Shown here piece by piece: positions 354 to 8,903 of a stretch of DNA of 64,000 nucleotides (its first letter is position 1; each line of letters begins with the position of its first letter). Origin of the DNA: Escherichia coli (GTDB lineage: Bacteria > Pseudomonadota > Gammaproteobacteria > Enterobacterales > Enterobacteriaceae); NCBI RefSeq assembly GCF_003019035.1, contig NZ_CP027447.1. One strand, given 5' to 3'. The position numbers were made by a program, and so were the translations under genes. The notes under the pieces are model-generated. The model did not search any database and had not been told where the DNA came from. It saw only the letters and a program-made list of their open reading frames with translations.

Positions 354-2135
354 ATGAATGCTGCCCTGACTGAACGACTGGTTTATGTCGCCCGCGCGGC
401 ACGTGACGCGGGGCATGGTAAACGCGGTGCAATATACGACGCTGCCTGTGCTGAACTTGGCATGTCCCGCGCCACTCTGCTGCGCAGGCTGAAGGAGGTC
501 TCTGTGACTGATAAACGCAAAAAACGCGCCGATGCCGGGCGCAGCGCTCTGACCCGCGACGAAGCCGCGCTGATATCTGCCACACTGCGTGAGGCCACCC
601 GCAAGAACGGTAAGCGTCTCTATTCCATCGCAGATGCAGTGGAAACCCTGCGGGCTAACGGCTTTATCTCCGCAGGCAGAACAGATGAAACCACCGGTGA
701 GTTTTTCCCGTTGTCCGAAGATGCCATCAGTCGTGCCCTGCGTAACTATGGCCTGCACCCGGAACAACTGGATGCCCCTGCACCGCATACCGAAGTGGCC
801 AGTCTGCATCCCAATCATGTCTGGCAGATTGACGCCTCACTCTGCACGCTTTACTACCTGAGCAATGGACATAAAGGGCTGCAGGTGATGGACAGCGCGA
901 AGTTCTACAAGAACAAGCCCGCTAACCTTGCCCGTATCGCCAGTGACCGCGTGTGGAGTTACGAGATTACCGACCATGCCAGCGGCTGGATTTACGTTGA
1001 GTATGTGACGGGCGCGGAATCCGGTGAGAACCTGTGTTCTGTGCTTATCAACGCCATGCAGGAGCGCGGTGGCGCAGACGTGCTGCACGGCGTGCCGAAA
1101 ATACTCTATCTCGACCCTGGCTCGGCAAACACCGCGGGTATGACGAAAAACATGTGCCGCTCACTGGGCATCGACCTGATAGCGCACAGGCCGCATAACG
1201 CCCGCGCCACCGGACAGGTGGAAAAGGCGCGTGACATTATCGAACGCAAGCTGGAGCCGGGTCTGAAGTTCCGGCCGGTTCACAGTCTGGAAGAACTCAA
1301 CGCGCTGGCCGCGAAATGGCGCAGCCACTTTAACGCCACGGCTGTTCACAGCCGCCACGGTAAAACCCGCACGGATATCTGGCTGAAGATTACTGCTGAG
1401 CAGCTGAAAAAAGCGCCTTCCGTTGAAGTATGCCGTGAACTGGCTGTGGCGACACCAGAACTCCGCAAAGTCACGCCAAAACTTCGTGTCTCGTTCCGGG
1501 GCACTGAATTTGACGTATCAACGGTACCGGGCGTACTGGTTGGTGAAAAACTGATGATTACCCGTAACCCATGGCGCAGCGATGTGGCACAGGTGGTTCT
1601 GACCGGTGAGGACGGCCACGAGACGTTCTTCCTGGTCGAAGAGGTCAGAAAGAACGAGTTTGGCTTTGCTGAAGGCGCGGCGGTATTTGGCGAAAGTTAC
1701 AAAGCCCTGCCGGAAACCCCGGCACAGATGGCGGCAAAAGAAACCGAAGCGCTGGTTACCGGTACAGACAACGCCGCAGATGCAGCCGCCGCACGCAAGG
1801 CGAAGGCGCTGCCGTTCGGCGGGCGGCTTGACCCGTATAAACATATCGACGACACCACACTTCCGGCCTATATGCCGAAGCGTGGTCAGGCCTCTGACGT
1901 ACGCGGGCCGCGCACTGAACAACGTCCCATGACTCATGTGGAGGCCGCGAAAGCCCTGCGCGATAAGTTCAGCGCCGACGGCCTTACCTGGACGCCGGAA
2001 CATTACCGCCAGTTAACGGCACAGTACCCGGACGGCGTACCGGAAGCTGCACTGGATGAAGTCATGGCCACGCTGACCACGCCGGCCCGCAGCAGCGTTA
2101 TCAGCAGCGTTATCAGCATTGTTAACGGCAACTGA
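354..2135 (+). CDS. Mu-like DDE transposase (A-like, integrase-core family)
   Basis: 593 aa ORF, ATG at 354 with GGAGG upstream; integrase-core-like segment (HVWQIDAS...); sits directly upstream of a B-like ATPase as in Mu A-B. Confidence 0.8.
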   Translation: MNAALTERLVYVARAARDAGHGKRGAIYDAACAELGMSRATLLRRLKEVSVTDKRKKRADAGRSALTRDEAALISATLREATRKNGKRLYSIADAVETLRANGFISAGRTDETTGEFFPLSEDAISRALRNYGLHPEQLDAPAPHTEVASLHPNHVWQIDASLCTLYYLSNGHKGLQVMDSAKFYKNKPANLARIASDRVWSYEITDHASGWIYVEYVTGAESGENLCSVLINAMQERGGADVLHGVPKILYLDPGSANTAGMTKNMCRSLGIDLIAHRPHNARATGQVEKARDIIERKLEPGLKFRPVHSLEELNALAAKWRSHFNATAVHSRHGKTRTDIWLKITAEQLKKAPSVEVCRELAVATPELRKVTPKLRVSFRGTEFDVSTVPGVLVGEKLMITRNPWRSDVAQVVLTGEDGHETFFLVEEVRKNEFGFAEGAAVFGESYKALPETPAQMAAKETEALVTGTDNAADAAAARKAKALPFGGRLDPYKHIDDTTLPAYMPKRGQASDVRGPRTEQRPMTHVEAAKALRDKFSADGLTWTPEHYRQLTAQYPDGVPEAALDEVMATLTTPARSSVISSVISIVNGN

Positions 2136-2145
2136 GGAGGAAAAC

Positions 2146-3312
2146 ATGCTGGTACTGAAGCAGCAACTGAAAGAGGCCCGTATCCCACAGGCGGTGGTGG
2201 CGAGAGCTGTCGATGTTTCTGAGGCCACGCTGGCCCAGATTGTGAATCATAACGCGTGGCCCCGCACCCGCCCCGGAGAAGTGCGCCGGCGTCTTGCGTC
2301 CTGGCTGGAAAGTCAGGGGATTGATACAACGAAGAGTTTTGATGCTGTACAGGGCGCGGCCACGCCCCGTACAGCGGGTACCACAGATAAAACGAGCCTC
2401 AGTGAGGAAGAGAATATGTTACTCAAAAAACAGGTGTTATTTCCAGCAACCAAAAAAGCGTTTGGTCTTTTCCGTGACCCGTTCGCCGACGAAGCCATGC
2501 AGGGTTCTGATGATGTGTTCACCACCCCGGACATTCGCTACGTGCGTGAGGCGCTGTACCAGACAGCCCGTCATGGTGGGTTTATGGCCGTCATCGGTGA
2601 GTCCGGTGCGGGTAAATCCACGCTGCGCCGCGACCTGACTGAACGTATCAACCGCGAGAATGCGCCGGTAATTGTTATCGAGCCATACATCATCGCTATG
2701 GAAGACAACGATGTGAAAGGGAAAACCCTGAAGGCAGCAGCTATTGCCGAAGCCATTATCAGTACCATCGCACCACTGGAAAGCATCAGACGCAGTCAGG
2801 ACGCCCGCTTTCGCCAGTTGCATCGCGTCCTGAAAGACAGCAGCCAGGCGGGGTTCAGCCACGTTCTGGTGATTGAGGAGGCTCACAGTCTGCCCATTCC
2901 GACACTGAAACACCTCAAACGCTTTTTTGAGCTGGAGTCCGGTTTCAAAAAACTGCTGTCCATCGTGCTGATTGGTCAGCCGGAACTGGCGACAAAACTG
3001 TCTGAACGCAATATGGAAGTCCGTGAAGTCGTTCAGCGCTGTGAGGTGGTCGAACTTCTGCCTCTGGACAATAACCTTGAAGAGTTTCTGACGTTCAAAC
3101 TGCAACGGGCCGGTAAACAACTGACGGACATTATGGACGCCAGTGCAGTGGATGCCATACGTGCCCGCCTGAGCAATCCGGGAAGTCATCGTAAAAATAT
3201 GGTCAGCCTGCTGTATCCGCTGGCCGTCAGTAACCTGGTGATAGCCGCCATGAATCTGGCCGCTGAAATCGGGGTTCCACAGGTCAACGCTGACGTTGTC
3301 AAAGGGGTTTAA
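2146..3312 (+). CDS. Mu B-like AAA+ transposition ATPase
   Basis: ATG 2146 preceded by GAGGAGG; Walker A GESGAGKST, Walker B-like VLVIEEAHSL; N-terminal HTH-like segment; overlaps A stop. Track ORF starts at TTG 2119, but the ATG at 2146 has the better RBS. Confidence 0.8.
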   Translation: MLVLKQQLKEARIPQAVVARAVDVSEATLAQIVNHNAWPRTRPGEVRRRLASWLESQGIDTTKSFDAVQGAATPRTAGTTDKTSLSEEENMLLKKQVLFPATKKAFGLFRDPFADEAMQGSDDVFTTPDIRYVREALYQTARHGGFMAVIGESGAGKSTLRRDLTERINRENAPVIVIEPYIIAMEDNDVKGKTLKAAAIAEAIISTIAPLESIRRSQDARFRQLHRVLKDSSQAGFSHVLVIEEAHSLPIPTLKHLKRFFELESGFKKLLSIVLIGQPELATKLSERNMEVREVVQRCEVVELLPLDNNLEEFLTFKLQRAGKQLTDIMDASAVDAIRARLSNPGSHRKNMVSLLYPLAVSNLVIAAMNLAAEIGVPQVNADVVKGV

Positions 3313-3314
3313 TA

Positions 3315-3584
3315 ATGAAATCCACCACAGGTATCAACCAGCAAATCAGCAAAGTGCAGTCAGCCATTATGGCGCTTAAGGCGACGAACACGGATGTACA
3401 AAGCATCACCATCAGGGGTAACAAACCTGTCATCCGCGTTTCCCGGAGTGCGCATTGCATGCGCATGCTTGAGCAGGGAAAGGCCTGTTATCTGTATACC
3501 GGACATGACCACAGGGGATATTTCCGTCAGGGCGTTTTCGAACTGCACGGCTGTCGCGTCGTGTGGCCGGAATCTTTGTGGTAA
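3315..3584 (+). CDS. hypothetical small protein (89 aa) between B and gam
   Basis: ATG 3315 with AAAGGGG RBS, 2 nt after B stop; no recognisable motif. Confidence 0.5.
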   Translation: MKSTTGINQQISKVQSAIMALKATNTDVQSITIRGNKPVIRVSRSAHCMRMLEQGKACYLYTGHDHRGYFRQGVFELHGCRVVWPESLW

Positions 3585-3611: not shown

Positions 3612-4142
3612 ATGGCAAAAAGTACAAAAGGGGCAAAACGTATCAAGTCCGCAGCGGCACTCTGGGTACCAGGGACACGCGAAGAGGTCATTGAGGGCAT
3701 CAGACTGCTCGGTGACGCACAACGTGAACTGGTCAGGGCTGAAACAGAAATGAATGACGCCATTGGCGATATCACCGCACGTTATGCCCCGCTCACCGAG
3801 AGCCTGAAAAAACGCATGGCCGAACTGCAGTCCGGTATTCAGACATGGTGTGAGGCACACCGTGATGAACTGACCGGCAACGGGAAGGTGAAGTTCGCTA
3901 ACCTCACCACCGGCGAGGTGCAGTGGCGAAACCGTCCGCCATCAGTCAGTATCCGTGGAGCGGATAATGTTATTGAACTACTGAGACGTCTGGGGCTTGA
4001 GCGCTTTATTCGTGTAAAAGAGGAAATAAATAAAGATGCCATTCTGAATGAAAAAGAGGCCGTGAAAAATATTCCCGGTATTACCATAAAAAGTGATATT
4101 GAGGATTTTTCAATAATTCCTTTTGAGCAGGATGTGCAGTAA
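3612..4142 (+). CDS. gam: Gam-like host-nuclease inhibitor (Mu Gam / Ku-like DNA end-binding)
   Basis: 176 aa; N-terminus MAK...KRIKSAAA, ETEMNDAI, and C-terminal EDFSIIPFEQ closely match recalled phage Mu Gam. Confidence 0.88.
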   Translation: MAKSTKGAKRIKSAAALWVPGTREEVIEGIRLLGDAQRELVRAETEMNDAIGDITARYAPLTESLKKRMAELQSGIQTWCEAHRDELTGNGKVKFANLTTGEVQWRNRPPSVSIRGADNVIELLRRLGLERFIRVKEEINKDAILNEKEAVKNIPGITIKSDIEDFSIIPFEQDVQ

Positions 4143-4434: not shown

Positions 4435-4703
4435 TTACCCCACAGGAAGCACGACAGCGCACCCGAACCCTTGTTGAACACTATGTCAACGAGTGTGAAT
4501 GCCGCGACCTCACCGATGTGAAGCACGTCCTGACGGCGCTAATCAGCATGGCCGCTCAGGCCATTGTGGCGACCAACGGAAAGGCGGCTGCCCTGCAGGT
4601 ACTGGTGAACACACTCACCCACACGGCAGAGCATGAGGTGCCGTACCGGATGGAAACCACTGCAGAAGGCGGCCTGCACATCACCGTCAGCCGGAAGCAC
4701 TGA
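4431..4703 (+). CDS. hypothetical protein (90 aa)
   Basis: ATGA start/stop overlap with the preceding gene, GGGAGG RBS; no recognised domain. Confidence 0.5.
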   Translation: MITPQEARQRTRTLVEHYVNECECRDLTDVKHVLTALISMAAQAIVATNGKAAALQVLVNTLTHTAEHEVPYRMETTAEGGLHITVSRKH

Positions 4704-4712
4704 GGGCGCGGC

Positions 4713-5009
4713 ATGACACGAAACACCGAACTCACCCGCACCGCCCTCTACCGTCTGGCCCTGCACCGTTTCGGGCCGGACGCACAGGCCCTGAAACTGA
4801 CAGAAGAGGCCGCTGAACTGGCGGCCAGTGCTGCCCGCAATCTGAACGGACAGGGCAACGAAAGTGACCTCGCGGCAGAGCTGGCAGACGTGGAAATCAT
4901 GACAGAGCAATTGCGCCTTCAGGGGATGGACCGGCTGATTGACTTCCACAAACAGAAAAAACTGGAACGTCTGGCTGCACGACTGGGCGTGATTTACACG
5001 AACGAGTAA
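4713..5009 (+). CDS. MazG-like nucleotide pyrophosphohydrolase-domain protein (putative)
   Basis: 98 aa; EEAAELA and ELADVEI motifs resemble the EExxE and ExxD helices of small MazG/NTP-PPase proteins; GAGGG RBS. Confidence 0.45.
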   Translation: MTRNTELTRTALYRLALHRFGPDAQALKLTEEAAELAASAARNLNGQGNESDLAAELADVEIMTEQLRLQGMDRLIDFHKQKKLERLAARLGVIYTNE

Positions 5010-5023
5010 CCGGGAGGCATTCA

Positions 5024-5239
5024 ATGGCTGACATACTCAGGGAAATCACCGCATGGATACTGATTCTTACTGGCCTGGCGACATGCCTCAGTGCGGGGGC
5101 AGCCCTGGCTGCCCTGCTGATGCACATAACAACACAGTGGTTATGGGAAAAGCTTAAAGCAGCATACAGCCTGAAAGAGCTGTCCGACGCTGTCCGGGCA
5201 TGGAAACGGCAGAAAAATACCGGAGATACAGAACAATGA
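5024..5239 (+). CDS. small membrane protein (71 aa, one predicted TM helix)
   Basis: ATG 5024 with GGGAGG RBS; hydrophobic segment ITAWILILTGLATCLSAGAALAALLM; ATGA overlap with the next gene. Confidence 0.5.
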   Translation: MADILREITAWILILTGLATCLSAGAALAALLMHITTQWLWEKLKAAYSLKELSDAVRAWKRQKNTGDTEQ

Positions 5240-5919
5240 CAGACCAGAATAAACACATTGAGAAACTGAAAAAGTTGCTGGCGCTGGCCGCATCCGGCAA
5301 CCCGCACGAGGCCGCTCTGGCACTGCGCCGAGCCCGTAAACTGATGGATGTTCACGGCATCACACATTCCGACATTGCTATGAGTGATATTGATGAAACC
5401 ATCAGTCATTACTGGCCGACAGGCAGTCTCCGTCCACCGCGCTACATGCTGGGCCTGATGAACATCATCCGCGAGGCATTTGGTGTTAACTCCATCATTC
5501 ACCCCGGCACGCATCCGTCTGTGGGGTTCTACGGTAACCGGGAACGAGCGGCACTGGCTGCGTACACCTGGGAAGTGCTGGTCCGCCAGCTGAAAAAGGC
5601 GCGTCAGCAGTATATCAGCGCACAGAACAAAAGAATAAAAAACGCCACCCGTACCAGCCGTGGAGACCAGTTTGCTGAAGGCTGGGTACTGGCCGTTATC
5701 AGTGAAATACAGTCCTTTGCCCTGACCGATGATGAGCGTGAACTGATGCAACAGTGGCTGGAACATAAATACCCGCAAACGCAAACCACCAGGGCGCGTA
5801 AACCGGGAAGAAGCCGCAATGGCGACGCCTCGCGCTATGCGGGGTTTCGTGAAGGGCAGAACGTCAGACTGCACCGCCCGGTCAGTGGGCAGGAACAACA
5901 GAAACTGGAGGCCAGATGA
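5236..5919 (+). CDS. DUF2786-like phage protein (227 aa)
   Basis: N-terminal motif KLKKLLALAASGNPHEAALALRRARKLM is typical of the DUF2786 family; GGAGA RBS. Confidence 0.55.
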   Translation: MTDQNKHIEKLKKLLALAASGNPHEAALALRRARKLMDVHGITHSDIAMSDIDETISHYWPTGSLRPPRYMLGLMNIIREAFGVNSIIHPGTHPSVGFYGNRERAALAAYTWEVLVRQLKKARQQYISAQNKRIKNATRTSRGDQFAEGWVLAVISEIQSFALTDDERELMQQWLEHKYPQTQTTRARKPGRSRNGDASRYAGFREGQNVRLHRPVSGQEQQKLEAR

Positions 5920-6146
5920 TTACGCTATCAGGTAACAGCCGGAAATTAAAAGCCTGCCGAATATCTGCCAGATACCTTTTTGCCCGCGCCTTTTTTAAGA
6001 ACGTCAGGCCGGGGATCACAATTGGTGTTATTGCCGGACGCGAACAGGTTGAAAAATACATGTCAGGTGCATGGTGGGATAACGACCCTGTCATTGCTGC
6101 CCGTAATATTCATATCAGTTGGGGGGATATTCAGAATGACGGCTGA
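5916..6146 (+). CDS. hypothetical protein (76 aa)
   Basis: ATGA overlap with DUF2786 gene stop, GGAG RBS 5 nt upstream; no domain recognised. Confidence 0.4.
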   Translation: MITLSGNSRKLKACRISARYLFARAFFKNVRPGITIGVIAGREQVEKYMSGAWWDNDPVIAARNIHISWGDIQNDG

Positions 6147-6351
6147 ATCTGTTGTATGTGCCCTGTTCTGGTATTGTTTTGTCGGTTGGTGTACTGCTGA
6201 ACTGCACCGCCGTTCAGGGTTTTATTCACGTTACAGTGGTGCCGGCTACTGGATTAGCTGGTCGGTGATGTTCCTGTGCTGGCCTGTGGCGCTTCCTTTA
6301 TATGTCGGTTATATCGGTGGCGCAGGTAAAAGGAGCAACGATGATGACTAA
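6136..6351 (+). CDS. small membrane protein (71 aa, two predicted TM helices)
   Basis: ATG 6136 preceded by GGGGGG; two hydrophobic, W/C-rich helices; 3' end overlaps gemA start. Confidence 0.45.
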   Translation: MTAESVVCALFWYCFVGWCTAELHRRSGFYSRYSGAGYWISWSVMFLCWPVALPLYVGYIGGAGKRSNDDD

Positions 6352-6793
6352 ACAACGTCTTATCCAGCTCATTCATATTGCCCGTAATGAACTGGGTATG
6401 GATGAAGACACCTACCGCCAGATGTTACAGGGGCTGACCGGTAAAGCCTCAACCAAAGGAATGGATACCACACAACTAAACTGCGTGCTGGAATCCATGA
6501 AAAGGAAAGGCTTTCGCGTTAAGCCTGCCGGAAAAGCCAGCTCCGGTTTACCGCTGGATAACCATCCGCAGTCCAGGAAAATCCGTGCGCTATGGCTTGA
6601 AATGGCTGCTGCCGGCATTGTTCGTGACCGTTCAGAAAATGCATTAGCGCGGTGGATCAAGCGGGAAACGGGCATCAGCGCCCTGCGCTGGCTCAATACT
6701 GAACAGGCAAGCAGTGTTATTGAGAAACTGAAGAAGTGGCAGCACAGAGCTGCGGGAGTAAAACATGAGCGACCTGAATCAGTTTCGAAGTAA
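6341..6793 (+). CDS. gemA: GemA-like protein (Mu gp16 family)
   Basis: ATG 6341 with AAAGGAG RBS; N-terminus MMTKQRLIQLIHIARNELGMDEDTYRQ matches the GemA family; 3' end overlaps mor by 29 nt. Confidence 0.8.
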   Translation: MMTKQRLIQLIHIARNELGMDEDTYRQMLQGLTGKASTKGMDTTQLNCVLESMKRKGFRVKPAGKASSGLPLDNHPQSRKIRALWLEMAAAGIVRDRSENALARWIKRETGISALRWLNTEQASSVIEKLKKWQHRAAGVKHERPESVSK

Positions 6794-7163
6794 AGGGCCG
6801 GAACTCCTGGTGGAGCTGGCACAGCATACCTCTGAGACCGTTCGCGAGATTATTGATATTGAGCCCGCAATTGCCGACCAGATTGGTCAGGCCGTCGCGA
6901 ACCGAATGATGCAGGTCTGGGGCGGGCAAAACGTTTATTTCCCGATGGGCATGGTATGGAAGGTCAGTCAGCGCGACCGGGAAATCTTCAGGGAGTTTAA
7001 CGGACGCAACCACCACGAACTGGCCCGCAAGTTTGGTGTTTCGCTTCAGTGGGTCTACAGCGTGGTTAAGCGGGTCAGAAAAGAAGAACTGGATCGGATG
7101 CAGGGCAGGTTGTTTGATGAAGATCTGCCAGAGGAGACGAAAGACGTTAACAAATCCAGATAA
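6765..7163 (+). CDS. mor: Mor-like middle-operon transcriptional activator
   Basis: 132 aa; GGQNVYFP motif and C-terminal HTH resemble Mu Mor; GGGAG RBS. Confidence 0.82.
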   Translation: MSDLNQFRSKGPELLVELAQHTSETVREIIDIEPAIADQIGQAVANRMMQVWGGQNVYFPMGMVWKVSQRDREIFREFNGRNHHELARKFGVSLQWVYSVVKRVRKEELDRMQGRLFDEDLPEETKDVNKSR

Positions 7164-7205: not shown

Positions 7206-7240
7206 AAAAGCACGGTAGACCCCTTACCGTGCTTTTTTTA
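7206..7240 (+). terminator. rho-independent terminator after mor
   Basis: Stem agcacggta / taccgtgct with 7-nt loop, followed by a T7 run (7234-7240). Confidence 0.6.
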
Positions 7241-7277
7241 TGCTCTCTCTTTAGTATTCAGGATGCAGGGAGAAAAT

Positions 7278-7910
7278 ATGTTTGACGTTTCGTTGTTAAA
7301 TCTGCCATGGGCAACACTGGTGACCCTGACCAGTGGCTATATTGGGTATTTTATTGCGAATGTGGGACTGAAGGATCACCACAAGCCCATTGAGGTGACT
7401 TTTTCTTCGCTGATTTTTGGCCTGACAGCAATGATGGCTTACCAGGCTGTTATGTGGGCAGGTCTGAATGCCTGGCTGGCAACACCACCAGCACTTCTGT
7501 GTGCCGTTACATGCGGTGCGTGGTGGCGCAGGTACGGTCGCAAATGGATGTACAGATTACTGTGGAATAATGATATTTCATGGTCTGACGATACCAGCTC
7601 AGCATGGCAGGCAATGTTTGATCAAACAGGCTTCAGCGTTACCGAGGTCAGAGTGATTCTTCGCGATGGTTCCGGTATGATGTCACGGCTGCCAGGGAAC
7701 TTTGAAGAGTGGCCTAACGGTCCGTTTACCCTGGGGAATAAAGGCGATATGGTTCTTTACGTCACGCACAGCAGCCCTTCAGGCAGTAACGAATGGGAAG
7801 AGTATAAAGGCGTGGTTGATAAGTACTGGGGAGCTCTGGCAACCTATATTCCAGCAGATCAGATTGCCAGAGTGGAGATCAGGCGCGTTCGTGCAACGAA
7901 CGATGAATGA
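7278..7910 (+). CDS. orphan membrane protein (211 aa; three N-terminal TM helices plus about 125-aa soluble C-terminal domain), function unknown
   Basis: ATG 7278 with AGGGAGA RBS 6 nt upstream; hydrophobic helices at roughly residues 8-30, 40-63 and 67-83; sits where Mu carries late activator C; no family recognised. Confidence 0.6.
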   Translation: MFDVSLLNLPWATLVTLTSGYIGYFIANVGLKDHHKPIEVTFSSLIFGLTAMMAYQAVMWAGLNAWLATPPALLCAVTCGAWWRRYGRKWMYRLLWNNDISWSDDTSSAWQAMFDQTGFSVTEVRVILRDGSGMMSRLPGNFEEWPNGPFTLGNKGDMVLYVTHSSPSGSNEWEEYKGVVDKYWGALATYIPADQIARVEIRRVRATNDE

Positions 7911-8435: not shown

Positions 8436-8903
8436 ATGATTAAACGCGTATTGGTTGTTTCAATGGTAGGTCTGTCTCTTGTCGGTTGTGTTAATAACGA
8501 CACCCTGTCAGGGGATGTTTATACCGCTTCTGAAGCGAAACAAGTACAGAATGTCAGCTATGGCACCATCGTTAACGTACGTCCGGTACAGATTCAGGGC
8601 GGTGATGATTCCAACGTTATCGGTGCAATTGGCGGTGCTGTTCTTGGTGGTTTCCTGGGGAATACTGTTGGCGGCGGAACCGGGCGTTCTCTGGCTACTG
8701 CAGCAGGCGCTGTTGCAGGTGGCGTAGCCGGTCAGGGCGTACAGAGTGCAATGAACAAAACGCAGGGTGTCGAGCTGGAAATTCGTAAAGACGATGGTAA
8801 TACCATCATGGTGGTACAGAAACAAGGCAACACTCGTTTCTCTCCGGGCCAACGTGTCGTACTGGCCAGCAATGGCAGTCAGGTGACCGTTTCCCCGCGC
8901 TAA
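8436..8903 (+). CDS. slyB: outer membrane lipoprotein SlyB
   Basis: 155 aa; lipobox LVGC and Gly-rich core match E. coli SlyB. Confidence 0.95.
   Translation: MIKRVLVVSMVGLSLVGCVNNDTLSGDVYTASEAKQVQNVSYGTIVNVRPVQIQGGDDSNVIGAIGGAVLGGFLGNTVGGGTGRSLATAAGAVAGGVAGQGVQSAMNKTQGVELEIRKDDGNTIMVVQKQGNTRFSPGQRVVLASNGSQVTVSPR

Follow-up and report, generated by a model that had tools for sequence, protein, structure and literature searches.

A conserved 71-codon gene upstream of gemA in a BcepMu-like prophage of Escherichia coli: coding status, predicted membrane hairpin and possible envelope-directed roles

What does a short hydrophobic protein do when its gene ends on top of the start of gemA in the early region of a transposable prophage? 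The question is raised by a 71-codon open reading frame (ORF) in a stretch of 64,000 nucleotides from E. coli (contig NZ_CP027447.1 of assembly GCF_003019035.1), called the window here. The DNA around the ORF matches that of Escherichia phage PhiKM, a member of Bcepmuvirus, at 97% identity, and the element that carries the ORF is a BcepMu-like transposable prophage. The gene is already catalogued, as a hypothetical protein in RefSeq and in PHROGs without an assigned function, and it is of a familiar kind, the small membrane proteins of phage early regions. Added here are selection acting on the peptide, a tail that is dual-coded with the start of gemA, the swap of this single gene as a cassette, a variable slot for envelope proteins before gemA, and relatives of the protein encoded on chromosomes. 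Coordinates of all features are collected in Table 1.

Coding status, family and predicted structure

The ORF was intact in all 48 IMG/VR relatives, which together with the window comprised 31 distinct DNA sequences. The ratio of nonsynonymous to synonymous substitution rates (dN/dS) was estimated by the Nei-Gojobori method for 391 pairs over codons 5 to 67, which lie outside the overlaps with both neighboring genes. The in-frame median was 0.115 (interquartile range, 0.09 to 0.18), while the same region read in the two other frames gave medians of 1.23 and 1.80. Variable sites numbered 28, 22 and 49 at the first, second and third codon positions, respectively. RefSeq annotates the same ORF as a hypothetical protein in strain IAI39 (WP_000123379.1; 99% identical to the window product), with the same length and the same position before gemA. 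Since the frame is under purifying selection and intact in every relative, the ORF is more than a chance occurrence; it is a genuine protein-coding gene under purifying selection, and we see almost no room for doubt on this point. The preliminary description of this locus, made from the sequence alone, had named conservation among Mu-like prophages as one of its checks.

The one residue that separates the window product from that of IAI39 is residue 58, at the end of the second predicted helix. The window has Gly58 (GGT, 6307-6309) and most close relatives, including IAI39 and at least 13 viral loci, have Asp58, a single nonsynonymous difference. A longer form of the protein starting at TTG 5980 (123 residues) was considered and rejected. 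The extension lies wholly inside the conserved 76-residue ORF upstream, in another frame, and RefSeq as well as all relatives favor ATG 6136. The PhiKM allele has GGGGAGGT at the position equivalent to the G-rich run that precedes this ATG in the window.

Both ends of the gene are shared with its neighbors. The 5′ end has 11 nucleotides in common with the end of the upstream 76-residue ORF, and the TAA stop lies 8 or 11 nucleotides past the two candidate starts of gemA, ATG 6344 and ATG 6341. The RefSeq start of gemA in strain IAI39 is the equivalent of 6344. The last residues of the product, KRSNDDD, are therefore dual-coded with the translation start region of gemA. In other alleles the tail differs along with the Shine-Dalgarno context; in the PhiKM allele an A-rich context yields the tail LKKRR. 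Because the tail is dual-coded, its conservation should not be taken as a feature of the protein.

The 71-residue product, MTAESVVCALFWYCFVGWCTAELHRRSGFYSRYSGAGYWISWSVMFLCWPVALPLYVGYIGGAGKRSNDDD, contains 5 Trp, 4 Cys, 6 Tyr and 4 Phe residues. One hydrophobic segment spans residues ~5 to 21 (mean Kyte-Doolittle hydropathy, 1.65; Wimley-White octanol free energy of the best 19-mer, -5.8 kcal/mol). A second spans residues ~38 to 60 and is robust, with a best 19-mer of -14.2 kcal/mol. An AlphaFold2 model built from 36 sequences is a two-helix hairpin with helices at residues 3 to 27 and 34 to 67. Across the family, the loop between the helices averages 2.8 Lys plus Arg against 0.9 Asp plus Glu, and no basic residues are found at the N terminus. 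This charge pattern suggests that the basic loop is cytoplasmic and that both ends are outside. The C-terminal tail is uninformative on topology (2 Lys/Arg against 3 Asp/Glu in the window type, basic in the PhiKM type), since in both types its sequence is dictated by the gemA ribosome-binding site. We are fairly confident that the product is a membrane hairpin. As predicted, the polypeptide would begin with a short acidic N terminus. The first helix would be marginally hydrophobic and carry a G17xxxA21 packing motif, and the second would be strongly hydrophobic, with a conserved WPxxLP motif; the basic loop between them (LHRRSGFYSRYSG) would probably be on the cytoplasmic side, and the short tail at the end would be set by the gemA ribosome-binding site. 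The preliminary description of a micro-protein with two Trp- and Cys-rich hydrophobic segments that overlaps the start of gemA agrees with these composition counts and with the overlap of 8 to 11 nucleotides.

The product matched phrog_6436 (PHROGs v4) with an expectation value (E) of 5.1e-14, residues 1 to 57 aligning with profile positions 1 to 57 of 68, and the PhiKM allele matched it over its full length (E, 2.2e-45). The profile carries no functional assignment, and no Pfam or NCBIfam model covers the family. A search of 5.8 billion protein clusters returned 26 relatives at 68 to 97% identity. Full-length members among them were 64 to 71 residues long, mostly 71, and four were shorter fragments; the named records were all from Enterobacterales (Escherichia, Citrobacter, Klebsiella, Salmonella, Enterobacter, Kluyvera and Prodigiosinella). 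The UniRef label of one family member reads "Prophage membrane protein." When 1.84 billion representatives were searched exhaustively with a profile, 17 proteins matched at an E of ≤0.001; several of them were fragments or spurious multi-pass proteins. A tblastn search of 50,697 phage records at an E of ≤10 found three related Mu-like phages and one weak metagenomic match only. The family is small, and its intact members have 60 to 72 residues. A literature search on the RefSeq accession, on BcepMu, GemA and E. coli prophages, and on small membrane proteins of Mu-like early regions returned nothing on this gene.

In the wider alignment W49-P50 was invariant; G17, H24, G28 and P54 were at least 90% conserved; and L10, W12 and W42 were frequent. 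The first helix showed a G17xxx(A/S)21 motif. L10, W12, G17, H24, G28, W42, W49, P50 and P54 were kept in members with identities as low as 27 to 40%.

Exchange, loss and relatives of the gene before gemA

Position relative to gemA is nearly fixed. In 47 of 48 loci anchored on the family, gemA starts 8 to 11 nucleotides before the end of the family ORF; in the 48th, a 91-residue ORF is inserted between the two genes. A complementary survey anchored on GemA found a family member at the gemA start in all phages with GemA at ≥67% identity but two: the locus with the inserted ORF and locus L120 (1430-1510), in which an in-frame internal deletion leaves a 30-codon ORF (MMMEYFVPGAFWYGFVGFAGLPGNGDDIDD) that still ends over the start of gemA. 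Degenerate remnants of the gene were found around positions 1350 to 1500 of L175, L176, L178 and L182. Given the L120 deletion and these remnants, some phage lineages, at least, can do without the gene. The upstream neighbor of the family varies, being either the 76-residue ORF or directly the DUF2786 gene. In lineages at 85 to 90% identity, conservation of the micro-protein equals that of GemA and exceeds that of the upstream genes.

Comparison with PhiKM in sliding 50-nucleotide windows revealed an island of divergence at the gene. DNA identity is 30 to 58% within the island and 94 to 100% over the rest of 4700 to 7100. The PhiKM product of the island has 68 residues and is 39% identical to that of the window, from the same family. 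A 39%-identical allele within flanks that are 94 to 100% identical indicates a single-gene cassette swap: by sequence comparison, one small gene is exchanged between otherwise identical prophages. The prophage region was present in 636 of 5426 complete E. coli genomes (~12%), all of which encode one of the two alleles, the window type in 206 and the PhiKM type in 464. From these summary counts, at least 34 genomes carry both types (206 + 464 > 636), and clonal structure confounds any comparison of allele pairs in such two-copy genomes.

Where GemA identity falls to 63 to 66%, the slot holds other proteins. One occupant is a putative lipoprotein of 64 to 72 residues with an LLVSAC lipobox (phrog_16556), and another is a 103-residue one-helix protein (phrog_14094, with a weak match to DUF6440). 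Neither is related to the two-helix family. Their ORFs end at the gemA start, at ~1500, in loci L172-L174, L177, L179-L181, L183, L185, L187, L123 and L125. The same identity band also contains a very divergent family member and degenerate remnants. In this clade the slot before gemA seems to be set aside for small envelope proteins. The idea that GemA is generally paired with a membrane partner was considered and rejected: in ten more distant GemA-bearing phages (Mu, BcepMu, two each from Vibrio and Pseudomonas, and one each from Microcystis, Shewanella, Rhizobium and Rhodobacter), the gene before gemA is not hydrophobic, and the pairing is therefore specific to this clade.

Members of the family also occur outside prophages. 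The 67-residue homologue P0031, which was found with a profile built from close phage members only (E, 6.6e-14), is encoded between genes for an alginate lyase and a heparinase II/III-type lyase, with a KdgM porin and a sodium/solute symporter encoded alongside. Homologues P0039, P0049 and P0052 (60 to 71 residues) lie 18 nucleotides after a TonB-family gene and a gene for a haem-type TonB-dependent receptor; P0039 matched the phage-only profile with an E of 1.7e-4, and the two named records of this group are Kluyvera and Pseudocitrobacter. Among these TonB-linked homologues dN/dS was 0.3 to 0.5, indicating moderate purifying selection. Like the phage proteins, the chromosomal homologues have the ELHRR...G and FWP motifs and a similar length and belong to the same family; unlike them, they are encoded outside any prophage, with no gemA nearby. 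Stable chromosomal copies argue against an intrinsically lethal protein. The nonprophage family loci are L005 (4001-4204), L010-L012 and L061-L063 (5001-5216).

Early operon, neighboring genes and prophage end

The preliminary description had placed the gene in a Mu-like early region, and the surrounding genes (rve-type transposase, ExeA/B-like ATPase, Gam, GemA and Mor), together with the identity to PhiKM, show that it was right to do so. The window begins inside the prophage. BcepMu has mor and gemA as its genes 1 and 2, at one end of its genome, and the same arrangement is found here.

Table 1. Features of the prophage early region, in window coordinates
Feature	Position	Strand	Remarks
rve-type transposase	354-2135	+	
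ExeA/B-like ATPase	2119-3312	+	
89-residue ORF	3315-3584	+	directly after B-like ATPase gene; phrog_2041, no assigned function
Gam	3612-4142	+	several small ORFs after it
Second micro-protein	5024-5239	+	71 residues; one hydrophobic segment, ~8-33; phrog_3958, E 1.7e-41
DUF2786/DUF7168 gene	5236-5919	+	member of the same operon
76-residue ORF	5916-6146	+	phrog_3681, no assigned function; not hydrophobic; in only part of the relatives
Divergence island (single-gene cassette)	6118-6375	.	from sliding 50-nucleotide windows against PhiKM
Shine-Dalgarno-like run GGGGGGA	6121-6127	+	8 nucleotides before ATG 6136; read from sequence
71-codon gene under study	6136-6351	+	ATG 6136, TAA 6349-6351; predicted two-helix inner-membrane protein; phrog_6436
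gemA Shine-Dalgarno AAGGAG	6330-6335	+	within codons 65-67 (K65-R66-S67) of the gene under study; read from sequence
gemA	6344-6793	+	Pfam GemA, E 1.4e-40; in-frame alternative start 6341
mor	6765-7163	+	Mor transcription activator family, E 1.1e-43; last early-operon gene
Strong intrinsic-terminator-like hairpin	7206-7243	+	13-bp stem plus T run; directly after mor

A simple scan for sigma-70-like promoter sites between 4000 and 8500 found none on the plus strand. The early transcript that includes the gene probably ends at the hairpin after mor. With no promoter-like site on this strand, a terminator only after mor, and an overlap with gemA, cotranscription and translational coupling are the natural reading, and these sequence signals make coexpression with gemA and mor probable. 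The gene would be transcribed within a long early operon, during lytic growth and not in the repressed lysogen, and its translation would be coupled to both flanking genes. The idea of co-regulation with GemA and Mor, put forward in the preliminary description, holds on the same combination of overlap, promoter scan and terminator.

The early region also contains a second micro-protein gene, which the preliminary description had singled out for a single membrane segment; it is intact, with one hydrophobic segment as described. The stop codon shares an ATGA with the start of the DUF2786 gene. Only a subset of relatives have this accessory gene, and compared with a 70%-identical variant its dN/dS was 0.38 to 0.39. 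This gene is a mosaic: in loci L027, L030 and L033 the N-terminal membrane half is ~50% divergent and the C-terminal half (WLWEKLKAAYSLKELSDAVRAW...) is nearly identical. Upstream of it, a 98-residue MazG-like ORF (4713-5009, plus strand) matched only the C-terminal half (113-211 of 218) of phrog_2245, a pyrophosphohydrolase family, and had no Pfam match; it may be a minimal or truncated form.

Downstream of mor, a gene at 7278 to 7910 (plus strand) encodes 210 residues; the N-terminal part has three hydrophobic segments, and the C-terminal half is soluble. It matched phrog_12870 (E, 1e-133) and nothing in Pfam or PADLOC; it is present in only some relatives, with a 69%-identical variant in others. 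Because it is sited between the terminator after mor and the end of the prophage, it is probably a separately transcribed cargo gene. The prophage ends at ~8271 (...TGATCA), where matches in other E. coli genomes stop. Beyond this point the flanking host genes vary by genome (kefF, a helicase gene, a Bug-family gene and others), which fits the end of a transposable phage that inserts at random by transposition. In the window, the host gene slyB (8436-8903) follows the prophage end.

Candidate functions

The explanation we favor combines these elements. The gene would encode a conserved but dispensable accessory inner-membrane protein, made early in lytic growth from a slot 5′ of gemA that takes alternative alleles or unrelated small envelope proteins in related phages. 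By acting on a component of the host inner membrane, the protein would alter the envelope as lytic development proceeds. Its nearest parallels would be proteins that keep out competing phages or guard against re-entry, and it is probably not a host killer. An exclusion-type function is suggested by the combination of envelope targeting, early expression, allelic turnover within a constant backbone, and replacement by nonhomologous envelope proteins, including a lipoprotein. Taken as a whole, from real gene through inner-membrane hairpin and early operon to dispensable envelope accessory with possible exclusion, we put this explanation slightly short of an even chance. The envelope-directed accessory or exclusion-type function itself, which is drawn by analogy, can be offered only tentatively. 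Small early envelope proteins that block superinfection are known from T4 (imm and sp) and T5 (llp) (PMC11436027; PMC9586334; bioRxiv 10.64898/2026.03.26.714494). Like them, the protein would be a small, envelope-targeted phage product expressed early in lytic growth, and in related phages its slot also holds a small lipoprotein, a feature reminiscent of Llp. It differs from them in having no sequence similarity to any of the three, and its phage is temperate and transposable, not a virulent T-phage.

Several observations speak against this explanation. The first hydrophobic segment is marginal, with a 19-mer Kyte-Doolittle value below 1.6, and the AlphaFold2 hairpin has a pLDDT (predicted local distance difference test) score of 66.6, which is low confidence. 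The PhiKM-type allele has a basic C-terminal tail besides the basic loop, so the topology is uncertain. Restriction of expression to lytic growth was deduced from a simple promoter scan. Comparison of the protein and 13 relatives with Pfam, NCBIfam and PADLOC gave nothing meaningful, the best matches being to unrelated membrane families at an E of >0.03; a profile search of the PDB gave insignificant matches to chemokine-receptor helices only; and a Foldseek search of BFVD with the AlphaFold2 model gave no match with an E of <0.9. The tblastn search of phage records, the profile search and PADLOC gave no match to a named exclusion or defence protein. The cassette swap may be no more than the mosaicism usual among phages, with no functional meaning. 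Finally, the exclusion analogy was built on position, size, envelope targeting and allelic turnover, all of which would be shared by other membrane-directed functions.

The preliminary description had suggested a Kil-like host-killing factor. On this view the hairpin would insert in the inner membrane and, early in lytic growth, poison an essential process such as division or the membrane potential. A small, aromatic-rich, hydrophobic protein from the early operon of a Mu-like phage, presumably expressed only in lytic growth, would suit such a role, and membrane-anchored phage division inhibitors such as SPO1 gp56 exist. Mu Kil (gp5; phrog_2743, "Kil protein for bacterial septation inhibition") is likewise a protein of ~70 residues from the early operon of a transposable phage. 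The two are not homologous, however: none of the Kil PHROGs (2743, 6381 and 2679) was among the matches of the window protein, whereas Mu Kil itself matches them, and the tblastn search, which included Mu, found no match in Mu. Mu Kil is also soluble-like (maximum Kyte-Doolittle value, 0.72) and encoded directly after gene B, while the B-like gene here is 2.8 kb and eight genes upstream of the gene under study and is followed directly by the 89-residue ORF. The C terminus of that ORF (ELHGCRVVW) faintly resembles that of Mu Kil (RLNGCQIIW) in a pairwise BLASTP alignment of 22 residues (E, 0.006), too weak for homology; if the prophage has a Kil analogue, this ORF is, by that faint hint, the better candidate. 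With homologues under purifying selection in ordinary chromosomal operons, and with most of the gene deleted in frame in one phage lineage, the Kil-like proposal is not supported, and we consider it unlikely. The same chromosomal homologues, which have no gemA nearby, count against the possibility that the peptide is incidental and that the ORF serves as a leader, with ribosomes terminating at 6351 over the gemA start promoting translation of gemA. The gemA Shine-Dalgarno sequence and start do lie within the last eight codons, the abutment or overlap is kept in nearly all relatives, and the L120 deletion drops the middle of the protein and keeps a short ORF ending over gemA, which shows that coupling itself is retained. 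A mere leader would not need 71 hydrophobic codons, nor would it account for a dN/dS of 0.115 outside both overlaps or for specific residues conserved between alleles that are only 27 to 40% identical, and as a full account of the gene it is quite improbable.

Alternatively, the protein might be a membrane partner or anchor dedicated to GemA, produced in fixed proportion to it and working in a complex with it. This would fit the strict adjacency and coupling within the clade, conservation about as high as that of GemA and higher than that of upstream genes, and the presence of another envelope protein at the same place where the family is absent. Such a partner should coadapt; instead, GemA is 96 to 100% identical between prophages in which the neighbor has been swapped for a 39%-identical allele. 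The nonhydrophobic genes before gemA in the ten distant phages and the loss of most of the gene in L120 point the same way, and we give a GemA partner little credence. A role in the timing of lysis, as a class II holin, pinholin or antiholin-like protein, draws on size and helix number, with phage 21 S (71 residues, two membrane helices) as the comparison. The first helix of the phage 21 pinholin is releasable, and the predicted first helix here is superficially similar, being weakly hydrophobic and rich in Gly, Ala, Ser, Thr and Cys. Yet the gene is in the early operon, between the DUF2786 gene and gemA and upstream of the activator gene mor, with no lysis cassette; BcepMu-type phages keep their holin, endolysin and Rz/Rz1 cluster elsewhere. 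The charge pattern also seems to differ, the C-terminal tail being acidic rather than basic in the window-type allele, though basic in the PhiKM type, and the tblastn search of phage records found no known holin homologous to the protein. A lysis-timing role is thus highly improbable.

A bolder version of the favored, envelope-directed explanation can be formulated. The slot 5′ of gemA in enterobacterial BcepMu-like phages might be a dedicated, rapidly exchanging site for small envelope proteins that decide phage-phage or phage-bacteriocin competition, and the two-helix family might target TonB/ExbBD-type machinery, shutting TonB-dependent entry during lytic growth. A target of this type is hinted at because chromosomal relatives directly follow a TonB paralogue and a TonB-dependent receptor; we regard the proposal as a long shot. 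A microcin-immunity-like function, immunity proteins of this kind being small two-helix proteins tied to TonB-dependent uptake, was considered and dropped. Ten of the 17 matches from the exhaustive profile search were inspected; none was recognized as a known immunity protein, and none had a functional name.

These findings would not surprise a specialist, and the gene merits a simple experiment combining expression with phage plating. For annotation, the Kil label does not apply to this gene, whatever its phenotype. If no phenotype were found, its product would be one more conserved hypothetical protein. Should it turn out to be an exclusion or envelope-remodeling factor, small phage membrane proteins whose target is known, of which there are few, would gain a further family, and the exchange of one 250-bp gene between prophages that are otherwise identical would have an explanation.

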